Position numbers and translations under genes: made by a program. The notes below the pieces were generated by a model that made no database searches, was not told where the DNA came from, and worked only from the letters and a program-made list of their open reading frames with translations. A DNA stretch of 64,000 nucleotides from an uncultured Chloroflexia bacterium (lineage in GTDB: Bacteria; Chloroflexota; Limnocylindria; Limnocylindrales; CSP1-4): the NCBI GenBank assembly GCA_963813535.1, contig CAWEZH010000002.1, positions 1,975,082 through 2,039,081 on the forward strand. The letters run 5' to 3'. Position 1 is the stretch's first letter, and each line of letters starts with the position of its first letter. Positions 2 through 63,952 of this stretch are shown here, piece by piece.

Positions 2-256
2 GGCGGCGAGAACCGGCTGACCGGCACCGTCGAGGAAGTGAGCTTCCTGGGGTCCATCGTCAGGACCCGCATCCGGCTGCCCGATGACACCTCGATGCTC
101 TCGCTCGATACGTTCAACGACCCCAACGTCGCGGCACCCGCCATCGACGCCGAGGTCACGGTCTCATTCCCGCCGGAAGCCTGCCTGGTGATCGCCCGCG
201 AGGCCGCGCCGGAACCGTCGCCTGACGCGCTGGCCGCCGCGGAGGCGTTGCTGTAG
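2..256 (+). CDS. 3' end of ABC transporter ATP-binding subunit (TOBE domain, PotA/MalK-like), truncated by window edge
   Basis: Frame 2 is open from the window start and reads NRLTGTVEEVSFLGSIVRTRIRL...VTVSFPPEACLV, typical of a TOBE domain; ends in TAG. Confidence 0.7.
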   Translation, partial: GGENRLTGTVEEVSFLGSIVRTRIRLPDDTSMLSLDTFNDPNVAAPAIDAEVTVSFPPEACLVIAREAAPEPSPDALAAAEALL

Positions 257-1098: not shown

Positions 1099-4000
1099 AT
1101 GCCCACCGAGCCCCGGCACCCCGCCGATCGACGCCGCGTGGCACCCCGCCGTACTTCGGCCGGCGAGCATCCGGCGACCGCCGATCCCACGCGGGCCGAT
1201 GCGCTCGGCCGGATCGCCGCCAAGGTCAGTGGCCGGCGTGCCCTGACCGGGCTCTTCGACGACATCATCGACGAAGCCTTCGCGCTGTTCGGCGTCGATC
1301 GTGCCGGCCTGTGGACGTACGACGCGACCGCCGAGCGCCCGCTGTCGCTCGCGGCGCAGCGCGGCCTCCCGCAGATCATCATCGATACGATCGTGTCGTT
1401 GCGAGGCGACGTCAGGACGGCGGGGATGGATGCCCTTCGGACCCGCCGGGTCCGCGTCCTCGATCGACAGATGCGGTCCACGACCGCATCACTTCGTGAG
1501 GTGTACCGATCGATCGGTGTCGGGTCGGTGTGCTTCGTGCCGCTCGTGTACGGCGATGACGTGCTCGGCCTGCTCGCGCTGTACCACCGCGAGACGTACG
1601 GCTGGACGCCCTCGGAGCGCGCGCTTGCCCGGGCGTTCGGCGATCACATGGCGACGGCGATCGGCACGGCTCGGCTCGCGGACTCTCGCCGTGGGCTCGC
1701 GGATCGGCTCTCGTCGATCGCGGAGTTGGCCGGTCGGCTGAGCGGCCTCCACGACCAGGCATCGATCGCCGCCGCCATCGTCGAGGAGGCCAAGCGGCTC
1801 ATCGAGCACGACACGATCCGCGTGTACCGGGTCGATCGGACGACAGGGATGTGCGAGCCCATCGCGTTCGAGGGCACGTTCCTCGGTACGACCGAGCCCG
1901 ACATGGAGACCCTGCGCATGCCCATCGGCCAGGGCCTGACGGGCTGGGTCGCCCAGCACGGTCGACCGCTGCGGCTCGACGAGGCGACCGCCGACCCGCG
2001 CGTCGTGGTCGTCGGCGACCGGCGTCCCGAGTCGATGCTCATCGTCCCGATGGTCCAGGAAGAGATCGTCCGCGGCGTGATCGTCGTGTCCGCGATGGGG
2101 ACGGGCCGTTTCGACGGCGACGACGAGGTGACGCTGACCATCTTCGCCGCCGCCGCGGTCCAGGCCCTGATCAATGCCGAGAACGTGCAGCGATTGCGGC
2201 GCCAGCAGGACGAGCTGGAGCTCCAGCTCGAAGGCCAGCGCCGCCTCCTCGATGTCAACGAGCGACTGCTGTCCACGCTGGAGCCGGCGGGTGTCCTGGA
2301 GCTGATCGCCGACTCGTTGCGGGCCATCGTCCCGTACGACTCGCTGAGCATCTACCGCGCCGACCGCGAGGCCGGCGTCCGGCGGGCCGTCATCGCCCGC
2401 GACAGGTTCGCCGACGAGATCATGGCCGACGCGAGTCCGATCGGGCTCGGGATCACGGGCTGGGCCATCGAGCACGGTGAGGCCGTGCTCTCCAACGAGG
2501 CGCACACCGATCCGCGGTCGATCCAGGTCCCCGGCACGCCGTTCGAACCCGAGTCGATCATGGTGGTGCCCCTGTTCGTCAACGGCGAGACGATCGGCAC
2601 GCTCAACGTCGGGCGCATCGGCGGGGTCGAGGCACACTTCACGCCGAACGAGTTCGAGCTCACGAAGCTCTTCGCGGGACAGGCATCGATCGCGATGCAG
2701 AACGCCCAGACGCATCGCGAGGTCCGGGTCCGCGCCGAGCAGGACGCCCTGACCGGTCTGCGCAATCACGGCGCGTTCCAACGGGAGCTTGGCGCGGCTG
2801 TGGAGGGCGGACGGCCGTTCGCCGTCCTGATGCTCGACCTCGACGCCTTCAAGCGCTTCAACGACGCCAACGGCCATCCCGCGGGCGACGGGCTGCTGGT
2901 CGAGATCGCCGCGGGGATGACGCGCGCCACCCGCGAGACTGACCGGCTCTATCGGTACGGCGGCGATGAGTTCGCCGCGCTCCTGCCTGGCGCGGATCGG
3001 GTCGTCGCCCACGAGGTCGCAGAGCGCATCCGGCGTGCCGTCCGGGAGCGGACCGCCGCCAAGGCCGGACTCGACGGTCTTGCCGTATCGATCAGCGCCG
3101 GCGTCGCGTGCTACCCGGAGGACGGCCGCACGAAGGACGAACTCGTGGCTGTCGCCGACCGGGCGCTCTATCTCGTGAAGTCGCCCGACAGTCGTCAGCC
3201 CGATGCCGGCCTGGCCGACCCGTATCTCCGCGCGCTCGACGAGACCGCCCTCGCGCTGCTCGACCGGACCGACCACGACAGCCTCCTCGGGACCATCCTT
3301 GCCCGTGCATCGGCGCTGCTCGGGACGCCGCACGCCTGGATCGACCTCCTCGAGGCTGACGGCAGCAGGCTCGAGCTGCGCGTCGGCACGGGTCTCTTCG
3401 CCGACCTCCAAGGCTCGTGCATGAGCGCGAGCGAGGGCCTCGCGGGTGCGATCAGCGAGACCGGCCAGGCCATCACGGTCGATGACTACGATCAGTGGGC
3501 GGGCCGCCCCGCCAACCCGCAGGTCGGTCTGGGTGCCACGATCGCGGCACCACTCAAGTCGGCCGGCCGCGTGGTCGGGGTGCTCGGGCTCGCCGCCGGC
3601 GGCGCACCGCGGCACTGGACCGAGCGGGACAAGGAGGCGCTGACGAGCTTCGCCCGACTGGCGTCGATCGCGCTCGAGAACGCCCGCCTCGTCGATGTCG
3701 CGCAGCGCGGCGCCCTCTACGACCATACGACCGGTCTGCCGAATCGCGAGCTGCTCACCGACCGGATCGCGCACGCGCTGGCGGGTCATCTCGTCGATGG
3801 CGACAGCTCCATCGCGGTCATCCTCCTCGACCTCGATCGCTTCAAGGTCGTCAACGAGACGCTCGGCCATATGGCCGGGGACCGGTTGCTGATGGCGGTC
3901 GGGCAGCGTCTCGTCCACAGCCTGCGGCCCACAGACACCGTCGCTCGCTTCGGCGGTGACGAGTTCGCCCTCGTCCTCGACCCGGTGACGGACGCTGCGG

Positions 4001-5067
4001 AGGCGCACGACATCGCAAGCCGTATCTCGCAGGAGCTCGGTGAACCATTCCCGCTCAATGGTCGTGACTGGTTCCTCACCGCGTCGATCGGCATCGCGCT
4101 CGCCGGGCCGGGTCGCGGCACACCCGACGAGCTGTTGCGTGAGGCCGAGATCGCGATGGTCCGGGCGAAGGGCGACGCCTCCCACCGCCACTTCCTGTTC
4201 GAGCCGTCGATGAGCGATCAGACGCTCGAGCGACTCGACCTCGAGAACGATCTTCGACGGGCGCTCGCGCGCGACGAGCTCCTCATCCAGTACCAGCCGA
4301 TCGTGACCCTGGCGACCGGCGAGATCGTCGGCTTCGAGGCGTTGGTCCGGTGGCAGCACCCGACCCGTGGTCTCGTGCCGCCGCTGGCCTTCATCCCGAT
4401 GGCCGAGGAGACGGGGCTGATCGTGCCGCTCGGTCGGTGGGTGCTGGACGCCGCCTGCCGGCAGGCGGCGGTATGGAACGCGCCCGAGTCGCGCCGGGGT
4501 GCGTCACGCCTGTTCGTGTCGGTCAACCTGTCCGCGCGCCAGTTCACCCAGAACGACCTCATCGACGACGTGGGCTCGACGCTGGCGCGGACGGGCCTCG
4601 AGGCGGAAGCACTCGAGCTGGAGATCACCGAGAGCGTCCTGATGGATCAGTCGGAGGCCGGTATCCGCGCGCTCCGAGATATCCGCGGTCTCGGCGTCCG
4701 CCTCGTCCTCGACGACTTCGGCACGGGCTACTCCTCGCTGTCGTACCTGAAGCACCTGCCGCTCGACACGATCAAGATCGATCGCACGTTCGTGGCCGGT
4801 ATCGAGGAACCGGCCGACCGATCGATCGTCGAGGCCGTCATCTCGCTCGCACATGGGCTCGGGATCGGTGTCGTGGCCGAGGGCATCGAGAGCGAGTCGC
4901 AGGCCGACAGACTGCGCGAGATGGGTTGTGACCTCGGCCAGGGCTACCTGTTCAGCCGGCCGGTATCGGCCGAGCGCACCTTCGAGCTCCTGCGTGACCG
5001 ATCCCGGGCGGCGCGGTCGATGCGCGCGAAGTCAGGCCGTTCGCGGACGCTCCGCCGGGTCGTCTAG
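1099..5067 (+). CDS. Multi-GAF diguanylate cyclase/phosphodiesterase (GAF-GAF-GAF-GGDEF-GAF-GGDEF-EAL)
   Basis: RYGGDEF and RFGGDEF motifs, FEALVRW and DDFGTGYSS EAL motifs, and GAF-type GLTGW/LIVPM repeats. Confidence 0.92.
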   Translation: MPTEPRHPADRRRVAPRRTSAGEHPATADPTRADALGRIAAKVSGRRALTGLFDDIIDEAFALFGVDRAGLWTYDATAERPLSLAAQRGLPQIIIDTIVSLRGDVRTAGMDALRTRRVRVLDRQMRSTTASLREVYRSIGVGSVCFVPLVYGDDVLGLLALYHRETYGWTPSERALARAFGDHMATAIGTARLADSRRGLADRLSSIAELAGRLSGLHDQASIAAAIVEEAKRLIEHDTIRVYRVDRTTGMCEPIAFEGTFLGTTEPDMETLRMPIGQGLTGWVAQHGRPLRLDEATADPRVVVVGDRRPESMLIVPMVQEEIVRGVIVVSAMGTGRFDGDDEVTLTIFAAAAVQALINAENVQRLRRQQDELELQLEGQRRLLDVNERLLSTLEPAGVLELIADSLRAIVPYDSLSIYRADREAGVRRAVIARDRFADEIMADASPIGLGITGWAIEHGEAVLSNEAHTDPRSIQVPGTPFEPESIMVVPLFVNGETIGTLNVGRIGGVEAHFTPNEFELTKLFAGQASIAMQNAQTHREVRVRAEQDALTGLRNHGAFQRELGAAVEGGRPFAVLMLDLDAFKRFNDANGHPAGDGLLVEIAAGMTRATRETDRLYRYGGDEFAALLPGADRVVAHEVAERIRRAVRERTAAKAGLDGLAVSISAGVACYPEDGRTKDELVAVADRALYLVKSPDSRQPDAGLADPYLRALDETALALLDRTDHDSLLGTILARASALLGTPHAWIDLLEADGSRLELRVGTGLFADLQGSCMSASEGLAGAISETGQAITVDDYDQWAGRPANPQVGLGATIAAPLKSAGRVVGVLGLAAGGAPRHWTERDKEALTSFARLASIALENARLVDVAQRGALYDHTTGLPNRELLTDRIAHALAGHLVDGDSSIAVILLDLDRFKVVNETLGHMAGDRLLMAVGQRLVHSLRPTDTVARFGGDEFALVLDPVTDAAEAHDIASRISQELGEPFPLNGRDWFLTASIGIALAGPGRGTPDELLREAEIAMVRAKGDASHRHFLFEPSMSDQTLERLDLENDLRRALARDELLIQYQPIVTLATGEIVGFEALVRWQHPTRGLVPPLAFIPMAEETGLIVPLGRWVLDAACRQAAVWNAPESRRGASRLFVSVNLSARQFTQNDLIDDVGSTLARTGLEAEALELEITESVLMDQSEAGIRALRDIRGLGVRLVLDDFGTGYSSLSYLKHLPLDTIKIDRTFVAGIEEPADRSIVEAVISLAHGLGIGVVAEGIESESQADRLREMGCDLGQGYLFSRPVSAERTFELLRDRSRAARSMRAKSGRSRTLRRVV

Positions 5068-49438: not shown

Positions 49439-50140
49439 GTGCTGGTCATCCCATCGATCGACCTCGAGGGCGGACGCTCCCGGGTCGTGTACTGGCCCGG
49501 CGCTGCCGCCGGTATCGGCGCGCCGACCGATCGTCCCGATCGCATCGTCGAGCGGCTCGTCGCCCAGGGCGCAGGGCTCATCCACCTCATCGACTTCGAC
49601 GGGGCGCGAGCCGGGGCGCCCGCGAACCTCGAGGTCGTCGGCGCCGTCGCGTCGCGCTCGGCCGTACCGCTGCAGCTCGCCGGCGGCCTCGACTCTGCCG
49701 AAGCGATCCAGCTGGCCTTCGCGGCGGGTGCCACGCGCGTGGTGCTGACCACCGCGATCGCCGATCGACCCGACGACCTGCGCGCGTGTCTGTCCGTGGC
49801 GGGCGACTGGCTGGCCGTCGGGCTGGACCCGAGGCCCGATCGGCTTGCGGCGTTTCCCTGGCGGCGGGCGGCGCCGCCGACGGTCGACGCACTCGTCGGG
49901 GAGCTGGTCGGAGCCGGAGTCGGTCGGTTCGTCCTGGCCCACGGCGGCAGCGACCCCGACCTCGAGCGGGTGCGTTCTGTCGTTCGGACGTACGATGCCG
50001 AGATCCTCGTCGCCGGTGGTGTGCGCGACCTTGACGGGGTCCGTCGCATCCGCGACACCGGTGCCAACGGCGTCATCCTCGGGGAGGCGATCCTGTCCGG
50101 CGCCATCGACCTGACCGCCGCCCTGGAGGCCGCCGCATGA
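49439..50140 (+). CDS. HisA/HisF-related TIM-barrel protein (divergent)
   Basis: VIPSIDL, HLIDFDGA, LQLAGG, VAGGV and GVILGEA; several HisA motifs are altered. Confidence 0.75.
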   Translation: MLVIPSIDLEGGRSRVVYWPGAAAGIGAPTDRPDRIVERLVAQGAGLIHLIDFDGARAGAPANLEVVGAVASRSAVPLQLAGGLDSAEAIQLAFAAGATRVVLTTAIADRPDDLRACLSVAGDWLAVGLDPRPDRLAAFPWRRAAPPTVDALVGELVGAGVGRFVLAHGGSDPDLERVRSVVRTYDAEILVAGGVRDLDGVRRIRDTGANGVILGEAILSGAIDLTAALEAAA

Positions 50141-50769
50141 TCCCCCGCCCCATCCGTGTCCTGGCCCGGCTCGCCGCGGTCGCCACCCTGGCAGTGGCCT
50201 GCACCGCAGCGCCGGGGGCGGCGCCCAGCGCGTCGTCCTCGACTGCCGCGGTCGGCGGCGAGTGCCCGACCACGCAGCCCGCCGCGCTACCCGCCGGGGA
50301 GACGCGGACCGTCACGATCGACACGGATCTCGGCTCGATGACCCTTGCCATCGAGGCCGATCTCTCGCCGATCGCTGCCGGCAACTTCGTGGCACTGGCC
50401 GGATGCGGCTTCTACGACGGCGTCGTGTTCCACCGGGTCGTGCCCGGGTTCGTGATCCAAGGTGGCGACCCGGAGGGATCCGGGACGGGCGGCCCCGGGT
50501 ACACGATCCAGGATGAGGCGGTCACCGCCGAATACGGGCGCGGTGTGGTGGCGATGGCGCGCACCAGCCAGCCGAATTCGGTCGGTTCGCAGTTCTTCAT
50601 CGTGCTCGACGATGCCGCCCAGGGCGCCCTGTCCTCTTACAACACCTACCAGATCATCGGTCACGTGACCGACGGCATGGAGACCGCGGACGCGATCACC
50701 GAGGCGGCCGACGCGGAGCAGCCCAGCAACCCCGTGACGATGACGAAGGTCACCGTCGCGAATCCCTGA
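50137..50769 (+). CDS. Cyclophilin-type PPIase, lipoprotein
   Basis: Lipobox-like AVAC; FYDGVVFHRVVPGFVIQGGDP...GSQFFI. Confidence 0.9.
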   Translation: MIPRPIRVLARLAAVATLAVACTAAPGAAPSASSSTAAVGGECPTTQPAALPAGETRTVTIDTDLGSMTLAIEADLSPIAAGNFVALAGCGFYDGVVFHRVVPGFVIQGGDPEGSGTGGPGYTIQDEAVTAEYGRGVVAMARTSQPNSVGSQFFIVLDDAAQGALSSYNTYQIIGHVTDGMETADAITEAADAEQPSNPVTMTKVTVANP

Positions 50770-50783
50770 ACGGAGGAGGCACC

Positions 50784-51290
50784 ATGACCCGAGCCACCAT
50801 CGCGACCGATATCGGCGACATCGAGATCGAGCTCTTCGACGAGTCCGCGCCGAAGGCAGCTAAGAACTTCATCGATCTCGCCAACAAGGGCTTCTACGAC
50901 GACGTCATCTTCCATCGCGTCATCCCGGGGTTCGTGATCCAGGGCGGTGATGGGCAGTTCGGCAAGAAGGCGGCGCTCGAGCGCAGCCGCGTCGGGACAG
51001 GCGGCCCGGGCTACACGTTCGAGGACGAGCCGGTCAAGGGTGATTACGCGCGCGGGAGCCTGGCGATGGCCAACGCGGGACCCAACACCAACGGCAGCCA
51101 GTTCTTCATCTGCACCGATGACCTGGCCGGTCGCCTGCCCAAGAACTACACGCTCTTCGGCCAGGTCACCAAGGGCCTGGACGTCGTCGACCGGATCGTG
51201 TCGGCACCCCGCGATTCGCGGGACCTGCCGAACGAGCCAGTGGCCATGACGTCAGTGACGGTCCACCCGGAGCAGGACGCTCAGGCCTGA
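50784..51290 (+). CDS. Cyclophilin-type PPIase, cytoplasmic
   Basis: FHRVIPGFVIQGGD and AMANAGPNTNGSQFFI; GGAGG RBS. Confidence 0.93.
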   Translation: MTRATIATDIGDIEIELFDESAPKAAKNFIDLANKGFYDDVIFHRVIPGFVIQGGDGQFGKKAALERSRVGTGGPGYTFEDEPVKGDYARGSLAMANAGPNTNGSQFFICTDDLAGRLPKNYTLFGQVTKGLDVVDRIVSAPRDSRDLPNEPVAMTSVTVHPEQDAQA

Positions 51291-52744
51291 TCTGCCGCCC
51301 GACCGCCACGCACGGCGTCGATCGCCGCGACGATCGCGTCGGCGGAGCGGTCGATGTCGGCCTCCCGGGTGTTCCAGCCGGAGACCGACACGCGCAGGGC
51401 GGGCGTCCCATGGAAGGTCGTCCCGCCCAGCCATAGCACGCCATCCGCCTGGATCCGTTCGATGACGGCTGTCGTCGTCGGCCCGTCACCGACCTCGACG
51501 AGGACCTGGTTGAGGACGACCTCGTTGAGGATGCGGATGTCCGGGCGGTTCGCCAGGCGACGGGCCATGCGCGCCGCGAGGTCACAACCGCGCTCGACCG
51601 TCTCGGCGATGCCGTTCGCCCCGAGCGAGCGGATCGCGGCGTAGATCGGAAAGCCACGCGCGCGGCGGGACATCTCCGGTACGTACTCGAACGGATCGCG
51701 CTCCGCGCCGGGAGCCGGCGGGAGGTAGGCGGCGGCGAGACCCATCGAGGCCCGGTGCGCCGCGCCATCGCGGATGAACACGAGGCCCGCGTCGTATGGG
51801 ACGTTGAGCCACTTGTGGGCGTCGGTCCCCCACGAGTCGGCTCCCTCGATGCCCTGGACAATGTGCTTGAGACGTGGGCTGGCGGCTGCCCACAGGCCGA
51901 ACGCGCCGTCGACGTGCAGCCACGCGTTCGGGTGCGAGCGGACCGCGCCGACGATCCGGTCGATCGGGTCGAACGCGCCGGTGTTCACCTCGCCCACCTG
52001 GGCACAGACGATGGTCGGCTCCGACCGGCCACGAAGGGCGTCGGCAAGAGCGTTCGCGTCCATGCGGCCCTCGTCGTCGACCGCGATCCGTTCGACATTG
52101 CCTCGACCGAGGCCGACGTAGCGGAGCGCGTTGAGCAACGACACGTGGACGTCGGCCCCGACCACGACGCGGACCGGCGGGGCTCCGATGAGACCCTGCT
52201 CCTCGACGTCCCAGCCGGCGTTTCGGAGGACCGCGTGACGGGCCGCGGCCATCGCCGTGAAATTGGCCATCGTCGCGCCGCTGACGAAGCCCACGGTCGT
52301 TCCGGACGGCAGCCCGAAGAGCTCGATCAGCCAGCCGGCCACGACCTCCTCGACGACGGACGCCGCGGGCGTTGCGAGGTACAGGCCGACGTTCTGGTCC
52401 CATGCCGAGGTCAGGAAGTCGGCTGCCAGTGCGGCGGGCACCGAGCCGCCGATGACGAACCCGAAGTAGCGCGGGCCGCTCATCGCGACGAGGCCGGCAT
52501 CGACGTCCGCGGCCAGCTCGTCGATCACCACCCGCGGGTTGGTCCCGTCCATCGGAAGCGGGCCGCCCAGGCGCGCGCGGAGCTCGTCGGCGGTGAGGCC
52601 GGGAGCGGCGCCGGCGCGCCGATCCGGCAACGACGAGCGGTAGTCGATGGCGAGCTCGGCGGCGTGCCGAAGCAGGTCGGCCGTGCCCGCATCGACACCG
52701 CCGTCGGTGGTCGCCGAGGACCTCGTATCAGCCTGGGTGGTCAT
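51281..52744 (-). CDS. PLP-dependent group II decarboxylase (aromatic amino acid/Glu decarboxylase-like)
   Basis: RYFGFVIGG, WDQN, LHVDGAFG and TDAHKWLNVPYD. Confidence 0.9.
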   Translation of the reverse strand: MTTQADTRSSATTDGGVDAGTADLLRHAAELAIDYRSSLPDRRAGAAPGLTADELRARLGGPLPMDGTNPRVVIDELAADVDAGLVAMSGPRYFGFVIGGSVPAALAADFLTSAWDQNVGLYLATPAASVVEEVVAGWLIELFGLPSGTTVGFVSGATMANFTAMAAARHAVLRNAGWDVEEQGLIGAPPVRVVVGADVHVSLLNALRYVGLGRGNVERIAVDDEGRMDANALADALRGRSEPTIVCAQVGEVNTGAFDPIDRIVGAVRSHPNAWLHVDGAFGLWAAASPRLKHIVQGIEGADSWGTDAHKWLNVPYDAGLVFIRDGAAHRASMGLAAAYLPPAPGAERDPFEYVPEMSRRARGFPIYAAIRSLGANGIAETVERGCDLAARMARRLANRPDIRILNEVVLNQVLVEVGDGPTTTAVIERIQADGVLWLGGTTFHGTPALRVSVSGWNTREADIDRSADAIVAAIDAVRGGRAADQA

Positions 52745-52819
52745 GCCGTTAGAACCCCCTTAGGACCTTCGTCCCGCACGAAGGTTAAGGAATTTACACA
52801 GTTCCGTATGCCAAAACCC

Positions 52820-52848
52820 TTGGAAATCGGCCCCTCGCACGGTACGAT
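52820..52848 (+). promoter_or_regulatory. Sigma70-type promoter of the orphan RNA
   Basis: TTGGAA (52820-52825), 17-nt spacer, TACGAT (52843-52848). Confidence 0.7.
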
Positions 52849-52853
52849 AACGG

Positions 52854-53030
52854 GGCTGCTCAGTCAGCCAAGCTGCCCCAGCGTCAAGGCCATGGGTAGG
52901 TAGGGTCAGGGTAGTCGGTACAGCCGACGTGATAGATGCTCTTGGCGCGTGGCAGAAGCGTCCGTCCTCGTGACGGACTCCTTCACCGGGACAGCATCGA
53001 GGCGGCTCCTTCGGGAGCCGCCTCGTGTTA
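52854..53030 (+). ncRNA. Orphan structured small RNA (6S-like candidate, family not recognised)
   Basis: Bounded by a promoter and a terminator, no credible ORF or RBS; long irregular stem plus internal hairpins. Confidence 0.65.
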
Positions 53031-53032
53031 TT
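52998..53032 (+). terminator. Intrinsic terminator with cUUCGg loop
   Basis: CGAGGCGGCTCC-TTCG-GGAGCCGCCTCG followed by TGTTATT. Confidence 0.85.
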
Positions 53033-53035
53033 GAC

Positions 53036-53156
53036 GCGGACCGAACGCGCGGCTGATCCCCGCGTTGGCCGCTGCGCGCCATCGCTCACGTAGTTTGAAC
53101 TACGCTCGCTCAGCTGCTCGCGTCCGCCTTGGGCTCAGCTCCCGCGTTCGGTCCGC
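53036..53156. repeat. ERIC/IRU-like miniature inverted-repeat element (121 bp)
   Basis: 14-bp perfect terminal inverted repeats GCGGACCGAACGCG/CGCGTTCGGTCCGC; core GCGTTGGC...TCACGTAG-TTTGAA-CTACGCTC...CGCCTT. Confidence 0.65.
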
Positions 53157-53220
53157 TTGAGGTTTCGCGGCGGTTTGACGTCCCGACGCGTCGACGGTCG
53201 TTCCGGCATGCTGGGGTCAG

Positions 53221-54558
53221 ATGCGGACATTCCACCTGTTGGTCGCCAACACGCTCGCGGCCAGCGTCACGAACAATTTCCTGTGGTTCGCGTTGACGTT
53301 CTGGGTCTATCTGGAGACCCGGGCGGTCGTGGCCACGGCGATCATCGGCGGCGGGTACATGCTCCTGGTCGCGGTGTCCAGCATGTTCTTCGGGACCTTC
53401 GTGGACCGACACCTGCGTCGGACATCGATGCTGCTGTCGAGCGGCATCTCGCTCGGTGCGTTCGCGCTGGCCGCGCTGGTCTACCTGCTCGCACCGGCCG
53501 GTTCGTTGGGCGATCTCGGCCACCCCGCGTTCTGGGCCCTCGTCGTCCTGGTGCTGGCCGGCGCCATCGCCGGCAACCTGCGTGCGGTCGCCCTATCGAC
53601 GACCGTGACGCTCCTGGTCCCCGAGGACGGTCGAGACCGGGCCAACGGGCTGGTCGGCACGGCCAACGGCGTGGCGTTCGCGATGACCTCCGTATTGAGC
53701 GGCCTGGGCGTCGGTCTGCTCGGCATGGGGGCGTGCCTGGTCATCGCCGTGGTGGTCACGGCGCTCGTCATCGTGCATCTCCTGACCATCAGGATCGCCG
53801 AGCAAGCGCCCGAGCCGCACGCTGATTCCCCCAGGCTGCTCGACGTGGCGGGAGCCATCCGCGCGGTCAGGACGGTGCCCGGGTTGTTCGCGCTCCTGCT
53901 CTTCTCCACCTTCAACAACTTCCTGGGCGGCGTGTTCATGTCGCTGATGGACCCGTATGGGCTGACGCTGATGTCGGTCGAGGCCTGGGGCATCCTCATC
54001 GGGATCACGAGCTTTGGCTTCATCGTGGGCGGGGTCGTGGTCGCACGCCGCGGCCTCGGTGCCAACCCAGTGCGGACCCTGCTCCTCGCGAATGTGGTCA
54101 TGTGGACGGTGACGATCGTCTTTCCGATCCGGTCCGAGATCCTCCCCCTTGCCCTCGGGTTCTTCATCTACCTCACGCTCGCCCCGGTCGCCGAGGCGTC
54201 AGAGCAGACGGTCGTCCAGAAGGTCGTGCCATTCCAGGAGCAGGGGCGGGTCTTCGGGTTCGGCCAGAGCCTCGAGACCGCCGCGTCGCCGATCACCGCG
54301 TTCCTCATCGGGCCGATCGCGCAGTTCTGGGTCATCCCGTCGCTCACCGATGGACGGCTCGCGGAGTCCATCGGCCCGTGGTTCGGCACGGGACCCGATC
54401 GGGCGATGGCGCTGATCTTCATCGTCGCGGGCGTCATCGGCTTGCTCGTGACGATCCTGGCGCTGCGCTCCCGGCAATACCGCGACCTCACCGGCCGCTA
54501 CGCCGCTGCGTCGAGCGAGGTCGGCCGCGACGGCGAGCTTCCGGCTCCAGCCACCTGA
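53221..54558 (+). CDS. MFS transporter (macrolide-efflux/DHA3-like)
   Basis: 12 TM; FGTFVDRH, RDRANG and QGRVFG. Confidence 0.9.
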   Translation: MRTFHLLVANTLAASVTNNFLWFALTFWVYLETRAVVATAIIGGGYMLLVAVSSMFFGTFVDRHLRRTSMLLSSGISLGAFALAALVYLLAPAGSLGDLGHPAFWALVVLVLAGAIAGNLRAVALSTTVTLLVPEDGRDRANGLVGTANGVAFAMTSVLSGLGVGLLGMGACLVIAVVVTALVIVHLLTIRIAEQAPEPHADSPRLLDVAGAIRAVRTVPGLFALLLFSTFNNFLGGVFMSLMDPYGLTLMSVEAWGILIGITSFGFIVGGVVVARRGLGANPVRTLLLANVVMWTVTIVFPIRSEILPLALGFFIYLTLAPVAEASEQTVVQKVVPFQEQGRVFGFGQSLETAASPITAFLIGPIAQFWVIPSLTDGRLAESIGPWFGTGPDRAMALIFIVAGVIGLLVTILALRSRQYRDLTGRYAAASSEVGRDGELPAPAT

Positions 54559-63876: not shown

Positions 63877-63952
63877 GCGCCTGTAGCTCAGTGGATAGAG
63901 CGTCGGCCTCCGGAGCCGAAGGTCGCAGGTTCGAATCCTGTCGGGCGCGCCA
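63877..63952 (+). tRNA. tRNA-Arg (CCG)
   Basis: GCGCCTG/CGGGCGC acceptor stem, TCGGC-CTCCGGA-GCCGA anticodon arm, GGTTCGAATCC, encoded CCA; TATCAT -10 at 63861. Confidence 0.96.

Follow-up and report, generated by a model that had tools for sequence, protein, structure and literature searches.

The stretch of DNA analysed here, referred to below as the window, comprises 64,000 nucleotides (nt) of contig CAWEZH010000002.1 from an uncultured Chloroflexia bacterium. A 476-nt intergenic gap between a pyridoxal-dependent decarboxylase gene (PF00282, minus strand) and a major facilitator superfamily (MFS) transporter gene (PF07690, plus strand) houses a small RNA gene, which runs on the plus strand from window position 52855 to about 53030 and is approximately 175 bases long. 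Together with its promoter the unit occupies positions 52820-53032 and has three parts, namely the promoter, some 143 nt of non-coding body and a terminator with a 12-bp stem and a UUCG loop. A preliminary description of this DNA, made from the sequence alone, had noted such a unit and had proposed that it is either a divergent 6S-like RNA or a new family of non-coding RNA. According to the analyses reported here, it is almost certainly a genuine functional non-coding RNA of a new family. Its parts are listed in the order in which they occur.

52781-52799, plus strand: upstream element AAGGTTAAGGAATTTACAC, 19 nt, at about -74 to -56, almost invariant in the genus
52820-52848, plus strand: promoter, with -35 element TTGGAA (52820-52825), 17-nt spacer and -10 element TACGAT (52843-52848), and AAAACCC just before it
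about 52854-52856, plus strand: probable 5' end, with hairpin P0 at 52855-52869 (GCTG/CAGC, loop CTCAGT)
52873-52877, plus strand: 5' strand of helix P1, CTGCC, which pairs with GGCAG at 52951-52955
52881-52893, plus strand: 5' strand of helix P2, GCGTCAAGG-C-CAT, with its partner at 52936-52948 and a C52890/C52939 mismatch
52894-52913, plus strand: 5' strand of the internal loop, GGGTAGGTAGGGTCAGGGTA, G-rich, unpaired and invariant
52914-52928, plus strand: apical hairpin P3, GTCGGT-ACA-GCCGAC
52929-52935, plus strand: 3' strand of the internal loop, GTGATAG
52936-52955, plus strand: 3' strands of P2 (52936-52948) and P1 (52951-52955), from RNAalifold and covariation
52960-52978, plus strand: hairpin P4, GTCCGTC-CTCGT-GACGGAC
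52979-52997, plus strand: single-stranded linker TCCTTCACCGGGACAGCAT, in which CGGGACAG (52987-52994) is invariant in family f1 (130 sequences)
52998-53032, plus strand: intrinsic terminator and T-rich tail, with a stem at 52998-53025 (12 pairs, 10 of them G-C), a UUCG loop and the tail TGTTATT

The RNA is thus built of hairpin P0, a P1-P2 stem with a big asymmetric loop capped by P3, hairpin P4, the linker and the terminator. A simple sigma-70 scan reported no promoter at this place, each hexamer matching the E. coli consensus at four of six positions only; since the scan misses hexamers of this kind, the promoter call rests on conservation. The motif TTGnnn-16..18-TAnnnT was found at a fixed upstream distance in 176 of 193 distinct homologous loci (127/144, 19/19 and 30/30 for the three types of locus), and the TTGGAA-17-TACGAT promoter had been placed correctly by the preliminary description. 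The block at 52781-52799 is kept despite lineage-to-lineage differences in the upstream gene, and a related sequence, GTAAAGGAATCTTAG, occupies the same place in family f4; judged from this sequence conservation, it could serve the RNA promoter as an UP element or as the binding site of a regulator. At the other end of the unit, a terminator scan of positions 52500-53400 returned the stem at 52998-53025, previously described as a 12-bp cUUCGg terminator, as the sole such site. This stem covaries among relatives, and alignment similarity begins at the promoter and halts right after the terminator tail. An automatic terminator count over the homologous loci, which gave 75/144, 16/19 and 3/30, was set aside as too strict on the T tail. 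The RNA is transcribed from a conserved sigma-A-type promoter of its own, and its transcription stops at the intrinsic terminator or partly continues through it.

Homologues were searched for by BLAST, which detected the promoter-to-terminator stretch in 20 of the 24 other genomes of the genus (80-98% identity) and a 68-nt core in 16 of 16 genomes of a second family (85-87% identity; genomes of 1.0-1.4 Mb). A covariance model of the core, R1, found the RNA in 141 of the order's 151 genomes (f1, 100/108; f2, 40/42) and in 26 of its 28 genera, with exactly one copy in nearly every positive genome. Two genomes of the genus, G010 (C14:76069 and C16:558314) and G112 (C2:154672 and C3:14445), carry two full-scoring copies, which could be due to duplication, strain mixture or assembly redundancy. 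With R2, a second covariance model that includes family f4, true matches scored at least 74 bits and the best other match 24.7 bits. The two models gave the same tallies over the class, i.e. 42/44 genomes in f1, 6/6 in f2, 47/50 in f4 (45/48 without the unpublished genomes G231 and G249), 1/49 in f3 and 0/1 in f5. The single f3 match (26.6 bits) sits inside a coding region and was discarded as a false positive, and in three f3 genomes only 50-80 nt lie between tRNA-Arg(CCG) and the upstream minus-strand gene, at the site where the RNA would be expected. Among 136 other Chloroflexota genomes outside the class there was one marginal match of 27 bits.

An exact-pattern scan covering one genome per prokaryotic species returned at least 119 stretches. 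Among the matches listed (80 records), 75 have titles naming Chloroflexi, Chloroflexota, Chloroflexia, Limnocylindria or Limnocylindrales (one of them Anaerolineaceae), four name other phyla and one is unspecific. To judge by these titles, the window itself comes from the class Candidatus Limnocylindria. The same scan of viral contigs gave no match. The RNA is specific to three families of the class Limnocylindria. The four records from other phyla that carry the exact motif are the metagenome-assembled genomes L135, L137, L140 and L160, assigned to Steroidobacteraceae, Polarisedimenticolia or Sulfomarinibacteraceae, and in these the motif likely stems from mis-binned Limnocylindria contigs.

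The fold was derived from the comparison of these sequences. RNAalifold, run on an unbiased MAFFT alignment of 21 distinct cores, independently predicted P1, P2 and P3 at the positions of the helices CTGCC/GGCAG, GCGTCAAG/CTTGGCGC (52881-52888 with 52941-52948) and GTCGG/CCGAC that had been read from the single sequence, and covariation agrees with all three. Pairs were counted in 87 distinct cores from the three families: 94.8% of the cells hold standard pairs, and changes on both sides occur in 16 of the 20 pairs. Helix P1 is 90% paired with three of its five pairs double-changed, and is replaced by GAUUC/GAAUC in family f4; P2 is 93.8% paired with eight of nine pairs double-changed; P3 is 100% paired with five of six pairs double-changed and exists in 21 versions. 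None of 500 shuffles reached these figures, and when one strand was slid so that the partner moved by one to three columns, pairing fell to 32-49%. Because of the independent RNAalifold prediction and these slid controls, we consider the core helices to be real.

The inner end of P2 is less variable. Its extension CAU/AUG is invariant and never broken, which is compatible with pairing, and covariation is silent on it; the mismatch position before it is U-A in 12, G-C in one and unpaired in 74 of the 87 cores. An in-loop pairing offered by RNAalifold, GGGUC/GAUGC, was not retained, two of its four pairs being broken in 14 and 19 of the 87 cores, respectively; as CAU/AUG is invariant, covariation cannot choose between the two arrangements.

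On both sides of P1 the RNA consists of hypervariable hairpins, P0 and P4, as judged from 130-146 full-length f1 sequences. Of 103 distinct segments at P0, 101 form the hairpin, in 84 versions; at P4, the 3' hairpin noticed before, 114 of 114 distinct segments each fold as one hairpin, in 100 versions. P0 is missing in genus g2, and P4 is missing in f4, where P0 exists. The weak closing stem GCTG-CTC/GGG-A-CAGC of the preliminary description, and with it the folding of the whole molecule as a single rod, had to be abandoned: the 5' GCUG pairs locally in the covarying P0 hairpin, and GCTG is absent from 42 of 145 f1 sequences while GGGACAG, within CGGGACAG, is invariant.

The strand follows from the pairs themselves. 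U-G pairs are frequent in the helices (63 of the 87 cores at one P3 pair, for instance) and would read C-A on the minus strand, which argues for the plus strand in agreement with the orientation of the promoter and the terminator. Folding energy by itself says little and leaves the strand open, because the minus strand folds equally stably: the plus strand gave z = -3.96 and was better than 200 of 200 shuffles, and the minus strand, at z = -5.07, also beat its shuffles, a result largely driven by the terminator.

The stability of the minus strand is one of two observations that would suit a locus that is not a functional RNA at all, i.e. a stretch that folds by chance, a gene for a small protein or a region with a regulatory role at the DNA level. 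The other is that frames free of stop codons span the whole segment in 98 (plus strand) and 75 (minus strand) of 146 relatives. Such frames are common because of the high G+C content, and the four overlapping open reading frames at the locus have no Pfam match, in line with the earlier view that the body holds no credible one. The spacing between two invariant anchors ranges from 42 to 56 nt and covers every class modulo 3 (90, 38 and 17 of 145), and therefore no reading frame is preserved. Compensatory changes in five helices, the U-G pairs that would be C-A on the opposite strand and RNA-library contigs confined to the unit also speak against this explanation, whose probability we regard as negligible.

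Evidence for the transcript came from public RNA libraries. Part of the RNA, 38-50% of the sampled words, turned up in 24 runs belonging to 20 studies, chiefly metatranscriptomes of soil and rhizosphere. The assembled contigs of four RNA-library runs, each from a different study, were placed on positions 52600-53300. All contig pieces but one fall within 52855-53024, none of the four runs has any contig depth over 52600-52767 or 53032-53300, and the summed depth is 6-63 in three of them. This is good evidence that a discrete RNA exists. Adapter letters on the 5' side abut the pieces at 52855, 52863 and 52872, and one 378-nt contig from a relative extends from 52855 to a point 186 nt beyond the terminator stem; a 5' end near 52855 is hinted at. 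Adapter letters on the 3' side abut at 52992-52994 in three studies, and also at 52988 in one. The 52992-52994 junction lies inside the invariant CGGGACAG, 4-6 nt on the 5' side of the terminator stem, and could reflect RNA processing there, or else an artefact of reverse transcription or library preparation at a strong hairpin; the junctions are a weak hint that there may be a shorter RNA form ending within the linker.

The RNA was compared to known families. At the gathering threshold Rfam 15 recognised only two tRNAs in the window, and an E-value search of the region gave 0.92 as its best value, with the chance rows WT1-AS_1, Mcr7, PhotoRC-I and PVT1_7. For two divergent relatives, from f4 and g2, only tRNA was found, plus a sub-threshold RsmY match for one of them, which was dismissed as chance level (21.9 bits against a gathering threshold of 57, E = 0.09). 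The absence of signal recognition particle (SRP) RNA, transfer-messenger RNA (tmRNA) and RNase P RNA signatures from the locus was borne out, and these RNAs are encoded elsewhere in the genome (75.1, 116 and 179.1 bits, respectively). Literature searches, which did not cover the supplementary tables of large motif-discovery papers where it could be listed, gave no description of this RNA, and a preprint mentioning Chloroflexota deals with repeat arrays and other elements. With no Rfam match, covarying helices, a sharp distribution and a presence in RNA libraries, the second half of the earlier proposal, a new non-coding RNA family, held. We rate it as a new family within a known kind, the stand-alone structured bacterial small RNA.

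The first half of that proposal, a highly divergent 6S-like RNA that would bind the RNA polymerase holoenzyme by mimicking an open promoter, fared less well. Like 6S RNA, the new RNA is single-copy with a housekeeping-like distribution, abundant and of suitable length (about 150-200 nt), has a strong promoter of its own and presents a large loop flanked by helices. It would also fill the one empty housekeeping-RNA slot of the class, as the SRP RNA, tmRNA and RNase P RNA are located elsewhere and no 6S was found: the 6S model RF00013 had no match at E <= 1 in the genome studied here and matched none of 151 Limnocylindria genomes, compared to 34 of 136 other Chloroflexota, which indicates that the model works in the phylum. 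The 6S RNA of this class is either very divergent or missing. However, the ends of the new RNA form no closing stem, its distal helix P3 has only 6-7 bp (with a loop of 3-5 nt) where 6S has a long terminal stem, and its shape is a branched string of hairpins. Its loop is strongly asymmetric and invariant in sequence, unlike the central bubbles of 6S, and RF00013 does not match it even at E <= 1. Family f3, moreover, has neither this RNA nor an RF00013 match, so that the one does not simply take the place of the other. We hold a 6S-like identity to be very unlikely. A mimic of the -10 element (TAnnnT) within the loop was considered as well and rejected, its position, by inspection, not being conserved across the three families. 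Whole families of other Chloroflexota have RF00013 matches (9/9, 5/5 and 4/4 genomes, for example).

The most constrained part of the molecule is the loop between P2 and P3, which the preliminary description had already singled out as a G-rich unpaired tract. Its 5' side reads GGGUAGGU(n0-2)GGGUnAGGGUA and is opposed by GnGAnAG (in DNA letters G-n-G-A-n-A-G, with seven variants in 49 distinct cores). The DNA pattern GGGTAGGT(n0-2)GGGTnAGGGTA is present in 75 of 75 loci that were recovered by the covariance model and not by the pattern. The loop is asymmetric, with 20-22 nt on one side and 7 nt on the other, and about 20 nt of the former and five of the seven of the latter are invariant across families whose helices have been rewritten. 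In the 49 distinct cores the four variable positions, two per strand, hold A, C or U (or one or two such letters) and never G; three of the 49 depart at a third or fourth 3'-strand position. As both strands are frozen while the helices turn over, the loop appears to be a tertiary motif engaged in a specific contact. The same genome was searched for another copy of the motif, with up to three mismatches, and none was found.

An invariant unpaired tract may also be a base-pairing seed. The RNA could act as a trans-acting base-pairing small RNA whose G-rich tract and/or linker CGGGACAG seeds on C/U-rich stretches of mRNAs and alters their translation or stability. Several hairpins, conserved single-stranded segments and an intrinsic terminator are the typical architecture of such RNAs, and the lineage-wide, single-copy occurrence and the strong promoter fit them as well. 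Lineage-wide small RNAs with invariant unpaired motifs are known, such as Yfr1 in cyanobacteria and 6C in actinobacteria. However, the G-rich tract lies in a loop that is closed on both sides, the opposite 7-nt strand is conserved too, and a G-rich seed is unable to target Shine-Dalgarno sequences. Hfq was not found in the genome either (PF17209; genome 92.9% complete). With G-U pairs allowed, the genome contains 493 complementary sites, against 1211-4909 for shuffled probes; Watson-Crick 10-mer sites number 29 for the loop (22-137 for shuffled probes) and 121 for the linker (19-120), and these counts are weak evidence either way, the controls being crude mononucleotide shuffles. As far as they go, complementary sites are no commoner than for the shuffled probes. 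Taking both sides together, we consider a base-pairing RNA unlikely.

Like the protein-sequestering small RNAs CsrB, RsmY and RsmZ, the new RNA presents short G-rich repeats, four GG(G)U(n)A units, on a structured scaffold with a terminator at its end. It differs from them in having no GGA in hairpin loops and in carrying the units within one internal loop, and a search of the genome (92.9% complete) for CsrA (PF02599) found none.

The spacing of the G tracts suggests another, more speculative view of the loop. Spinach-type aptamers have a G-quadruplex core between two helices. The new RNA likewise carries its tract in an internal loop between helices, and variation in length and sequence is confined to the letters between the tracts and never goes to G. 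The loop might be a natural guanine-vacancy G-quadruplex, with three GGG tracts and one GG, between P2 and P3 and might serve as a sensor of guanine nucleotides. The vacancy would be filled by guanosine triphosphate (GTP), guanosine monophosphate (GMP), ppGpp or a cyclic dinucleotide, so that the RNA would sense the guanine-nucleotide or growth state, and the sensor would ancestrally have been wired to the read-through that expresses a downstream tRNA-Arg(CCG), described below. The invariant G3/G2/G3/G3 tracts, the loops of 1-3 nt, the four variable positions that are never G and the link to a tRNA devoid of a promoter are compatible with this. Guanine-vacancy G-quadruplexes have been described in DNA, in human promoters (PMC8682790), and the tract formula of the new RNA, G3-UA-G2-U(n0-2)-G3-UnA-G3 with loops of 1-3 nt, is like theirs. 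The likeness is one of sequence alone, the non-G letters of the loop are invariant too, and ViennaRNA with G-quadruplex energies predicted none, the fold being the same as the ordinary one. Such a sensor seems highly improbable to us; if it did exist, it would be without precedent among natural RNA sensors in being built on a G-quadruplex.

A different interpretation arises from the neighbourhood of the gene. The genes that bear on it are the following.

50137-51290, plus strand: two putative cyclophilin-type prolyl isomerase genes, identified by reading the sequence of the open reading frames; ancestral upstream neighbours
51281-52744, minus strand: pyridoxal-dependent decarboxylase gene (PF00282), between the cyclophilin pair and the RNA
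53221-54558, plus strand: MFS transporter gene (PF07690), the next gene downstream of the RNA
63877-63952, plus strand: tRNA-Arg(CCG), ancestral immediate downstream neighbour, here 10.8 kb off

In f4 and g2 loci, cyclophilin genes (PF00160) lie directly upstream on the same strand and abut the RNA promoter. Among 210 de-duplicated loci, 63 have a tRNA on the same strand within 600 nt downstream, 132 do not and 15 run off the end of the contig. This tRNA is tRNA-Arg(CCG) in 63 of 63 cases, in all three families. Fewer than 45 nt separate the terminator hairpin from the tRNA in 32 of the 63, and fewer than 30 nt in 12, and only one of the 63 spacers contains a promoter-like motif; because the others do not, the tRNA must be read from the promoter of the RNA in many genomes. 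The gene is ancestrally located between the cyclophilin genes and tRNA-Arg(CCG) and heads a small operon with that tRNA. In the window, the segment 53033-63876 (about 10.8 kb, with the MFS gene first) separates the RNA from tRNA-Arg(CCG), which in other families are 3-350 nt apart, and looks like a lineage-specific insertion. The PF00282 gene, which separates the cyclophilin pair from the RNA, marks another local rearrangement in this genus. Just 3' of the terminator, a 14-nt perfect inverted repeat (53036-53049 and 53143-53156, the whole spanning window positions 53036-53156) surrounds an element of about 90 nt; the element has three more copies in the genome at 73-78% identity (G000 C3:923953, C3:909285 and C2:37856), whose shared core carries a small central hairpin, and it looks like a dispersed repeat of the repetitive extragenic palindromic (REP) or miniature inverted-repeat transposable element (MITE) type. 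Pairing between the linker and the 3' portion of tRNA-Arg(CCG) was also considered and rejected, as the complementarity amounts to only 5 bp in this genome.

This arrangement raises the question of a cis-acting attenuator, in which the P1-P2-loop-P3 domain would sense a signal and set the read-through of the terminator into tRNA-Arg(CCG). The identity of the tRNA in all 63 loci, the short spacers almost devoid of promoter-like motifs and the relative's contig that continues 186 nt beyond the terminator stem are in its favour. Covarying helices around an invariant asymmetric loop, followed by a terminator and, in many genomes, by a gene with no promoter of its own, are moreover what a riboswitch with its terminator platform looks like. 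Unlike in riboswitches, what lies downstream is either a tRNA gene or lacks conservation altogether, no Rfam 15 riboswitch matched and no antiterminator was found; inspection of the three family consensus sequences, which was not a formal search, revealed no conserved pairing that competes with the terminator stem. P4 and the linker stand between the domain and the terminator, and 132 of the 210 loci have no tRNA within 600 nt. At 79 f1-type loci, the first clear downstream protein gene runs against the RNA in 30 cases and with it in 26, and 23 cases are unclear, as called by a rough heuristic based on third-codon-position G+C content (GC3), so that the next protein gene is convergent as often as co-directional. 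Promoter, fold and terminator are all intact in the window despite the tRNA being 10.8 kb away. The mixed downstream strand and the intact RNA at this distance speak against a cis-regulatory role, and an attenuator appears quite unlikely.

The link to the tRNA also recalls small RNAs derived from tRNA operons; the 3' external spacer of leuZ in E. coli is a small RNA from the transcript of a tRNA operon. The new RNA shares one transcription unit with a tRNA and is probably released by tRNA processing where the spacer is short. It differs from spacer RNAs of the leuZ type in lying 5' of the tRNA, in having its own terminator, in being far larger and more structured and in persisting after the tRNA link has been lost.

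We tentatively favour, at somewhat short of an even chance, a trans-acting structured RNA that serves as a binding platform, its loop binding a protein or a ligand. The G-rich internal loop, with both of its strands, would form a defined three-dimensional site in a stable RNA; this site would bind a specific protein or small ligand, and the RNA would act through protein binding, as do 6S, CsrB or Y RNAs, rather than through antisense pairing. We prefer this reading because the loop is closed, complementary sites show no excess (with weak controls) and the downstream context varies. The existence of the gene, where it begins and ends, how it folds, which genomes carry it and its occurrence in RNA libraries are observations; the trans action and the role of the loop as a binding site are what we infer. 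Several points weigh against it. The two textbook RNA-binding partners, CsrA and Hfq, are out, neither having been found in the genome. The invariant single-stranded tract also resembles a base-pairing seed, and the target scans are crude; an aptamer-like domain, a terminator and then a tRNA devoid of a promoter in many genomes fit a cis-acting attenuator. The alignment used for the pair counts was fitted to the model and its sequences are related, so that the figures lean towards structure. The assembled contigs give neither strand, level nor true ends of the RNA, and one contig of low depth (3.6) spans the promoter region, which means that the run in question also contains some DNA or some transcript from upstream.

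The Limnocylindria, for the most part uncultured, are Chloroflexota widespread in soil and freshwater, and the RNA is among the very few features that are common, in single copy, to nearly all members of three of the families. Its abundance suffices for assembly from small soil metatranscriptomes. Its covariance model defines a family suitable for submission to Rfam, removes a recurrent unannotated gap from hundreds of metagenome-assembled genomes and provides a sharp lineage marker, with matches at 74 bits or more and all else at 25 bits or less. For a class apparently devoid of a recognisable 6S RNA, it poses a concrete question on the stationary-phase regulation of RNA polymerase. That some 27 loop nucleotides are frozen while every surrounding helix has been rewritten implies strong selection for a specific molecular contact, and identifying what is contacted would provide bacterial biology with a new ribonucleoprotein or RNA sensor.

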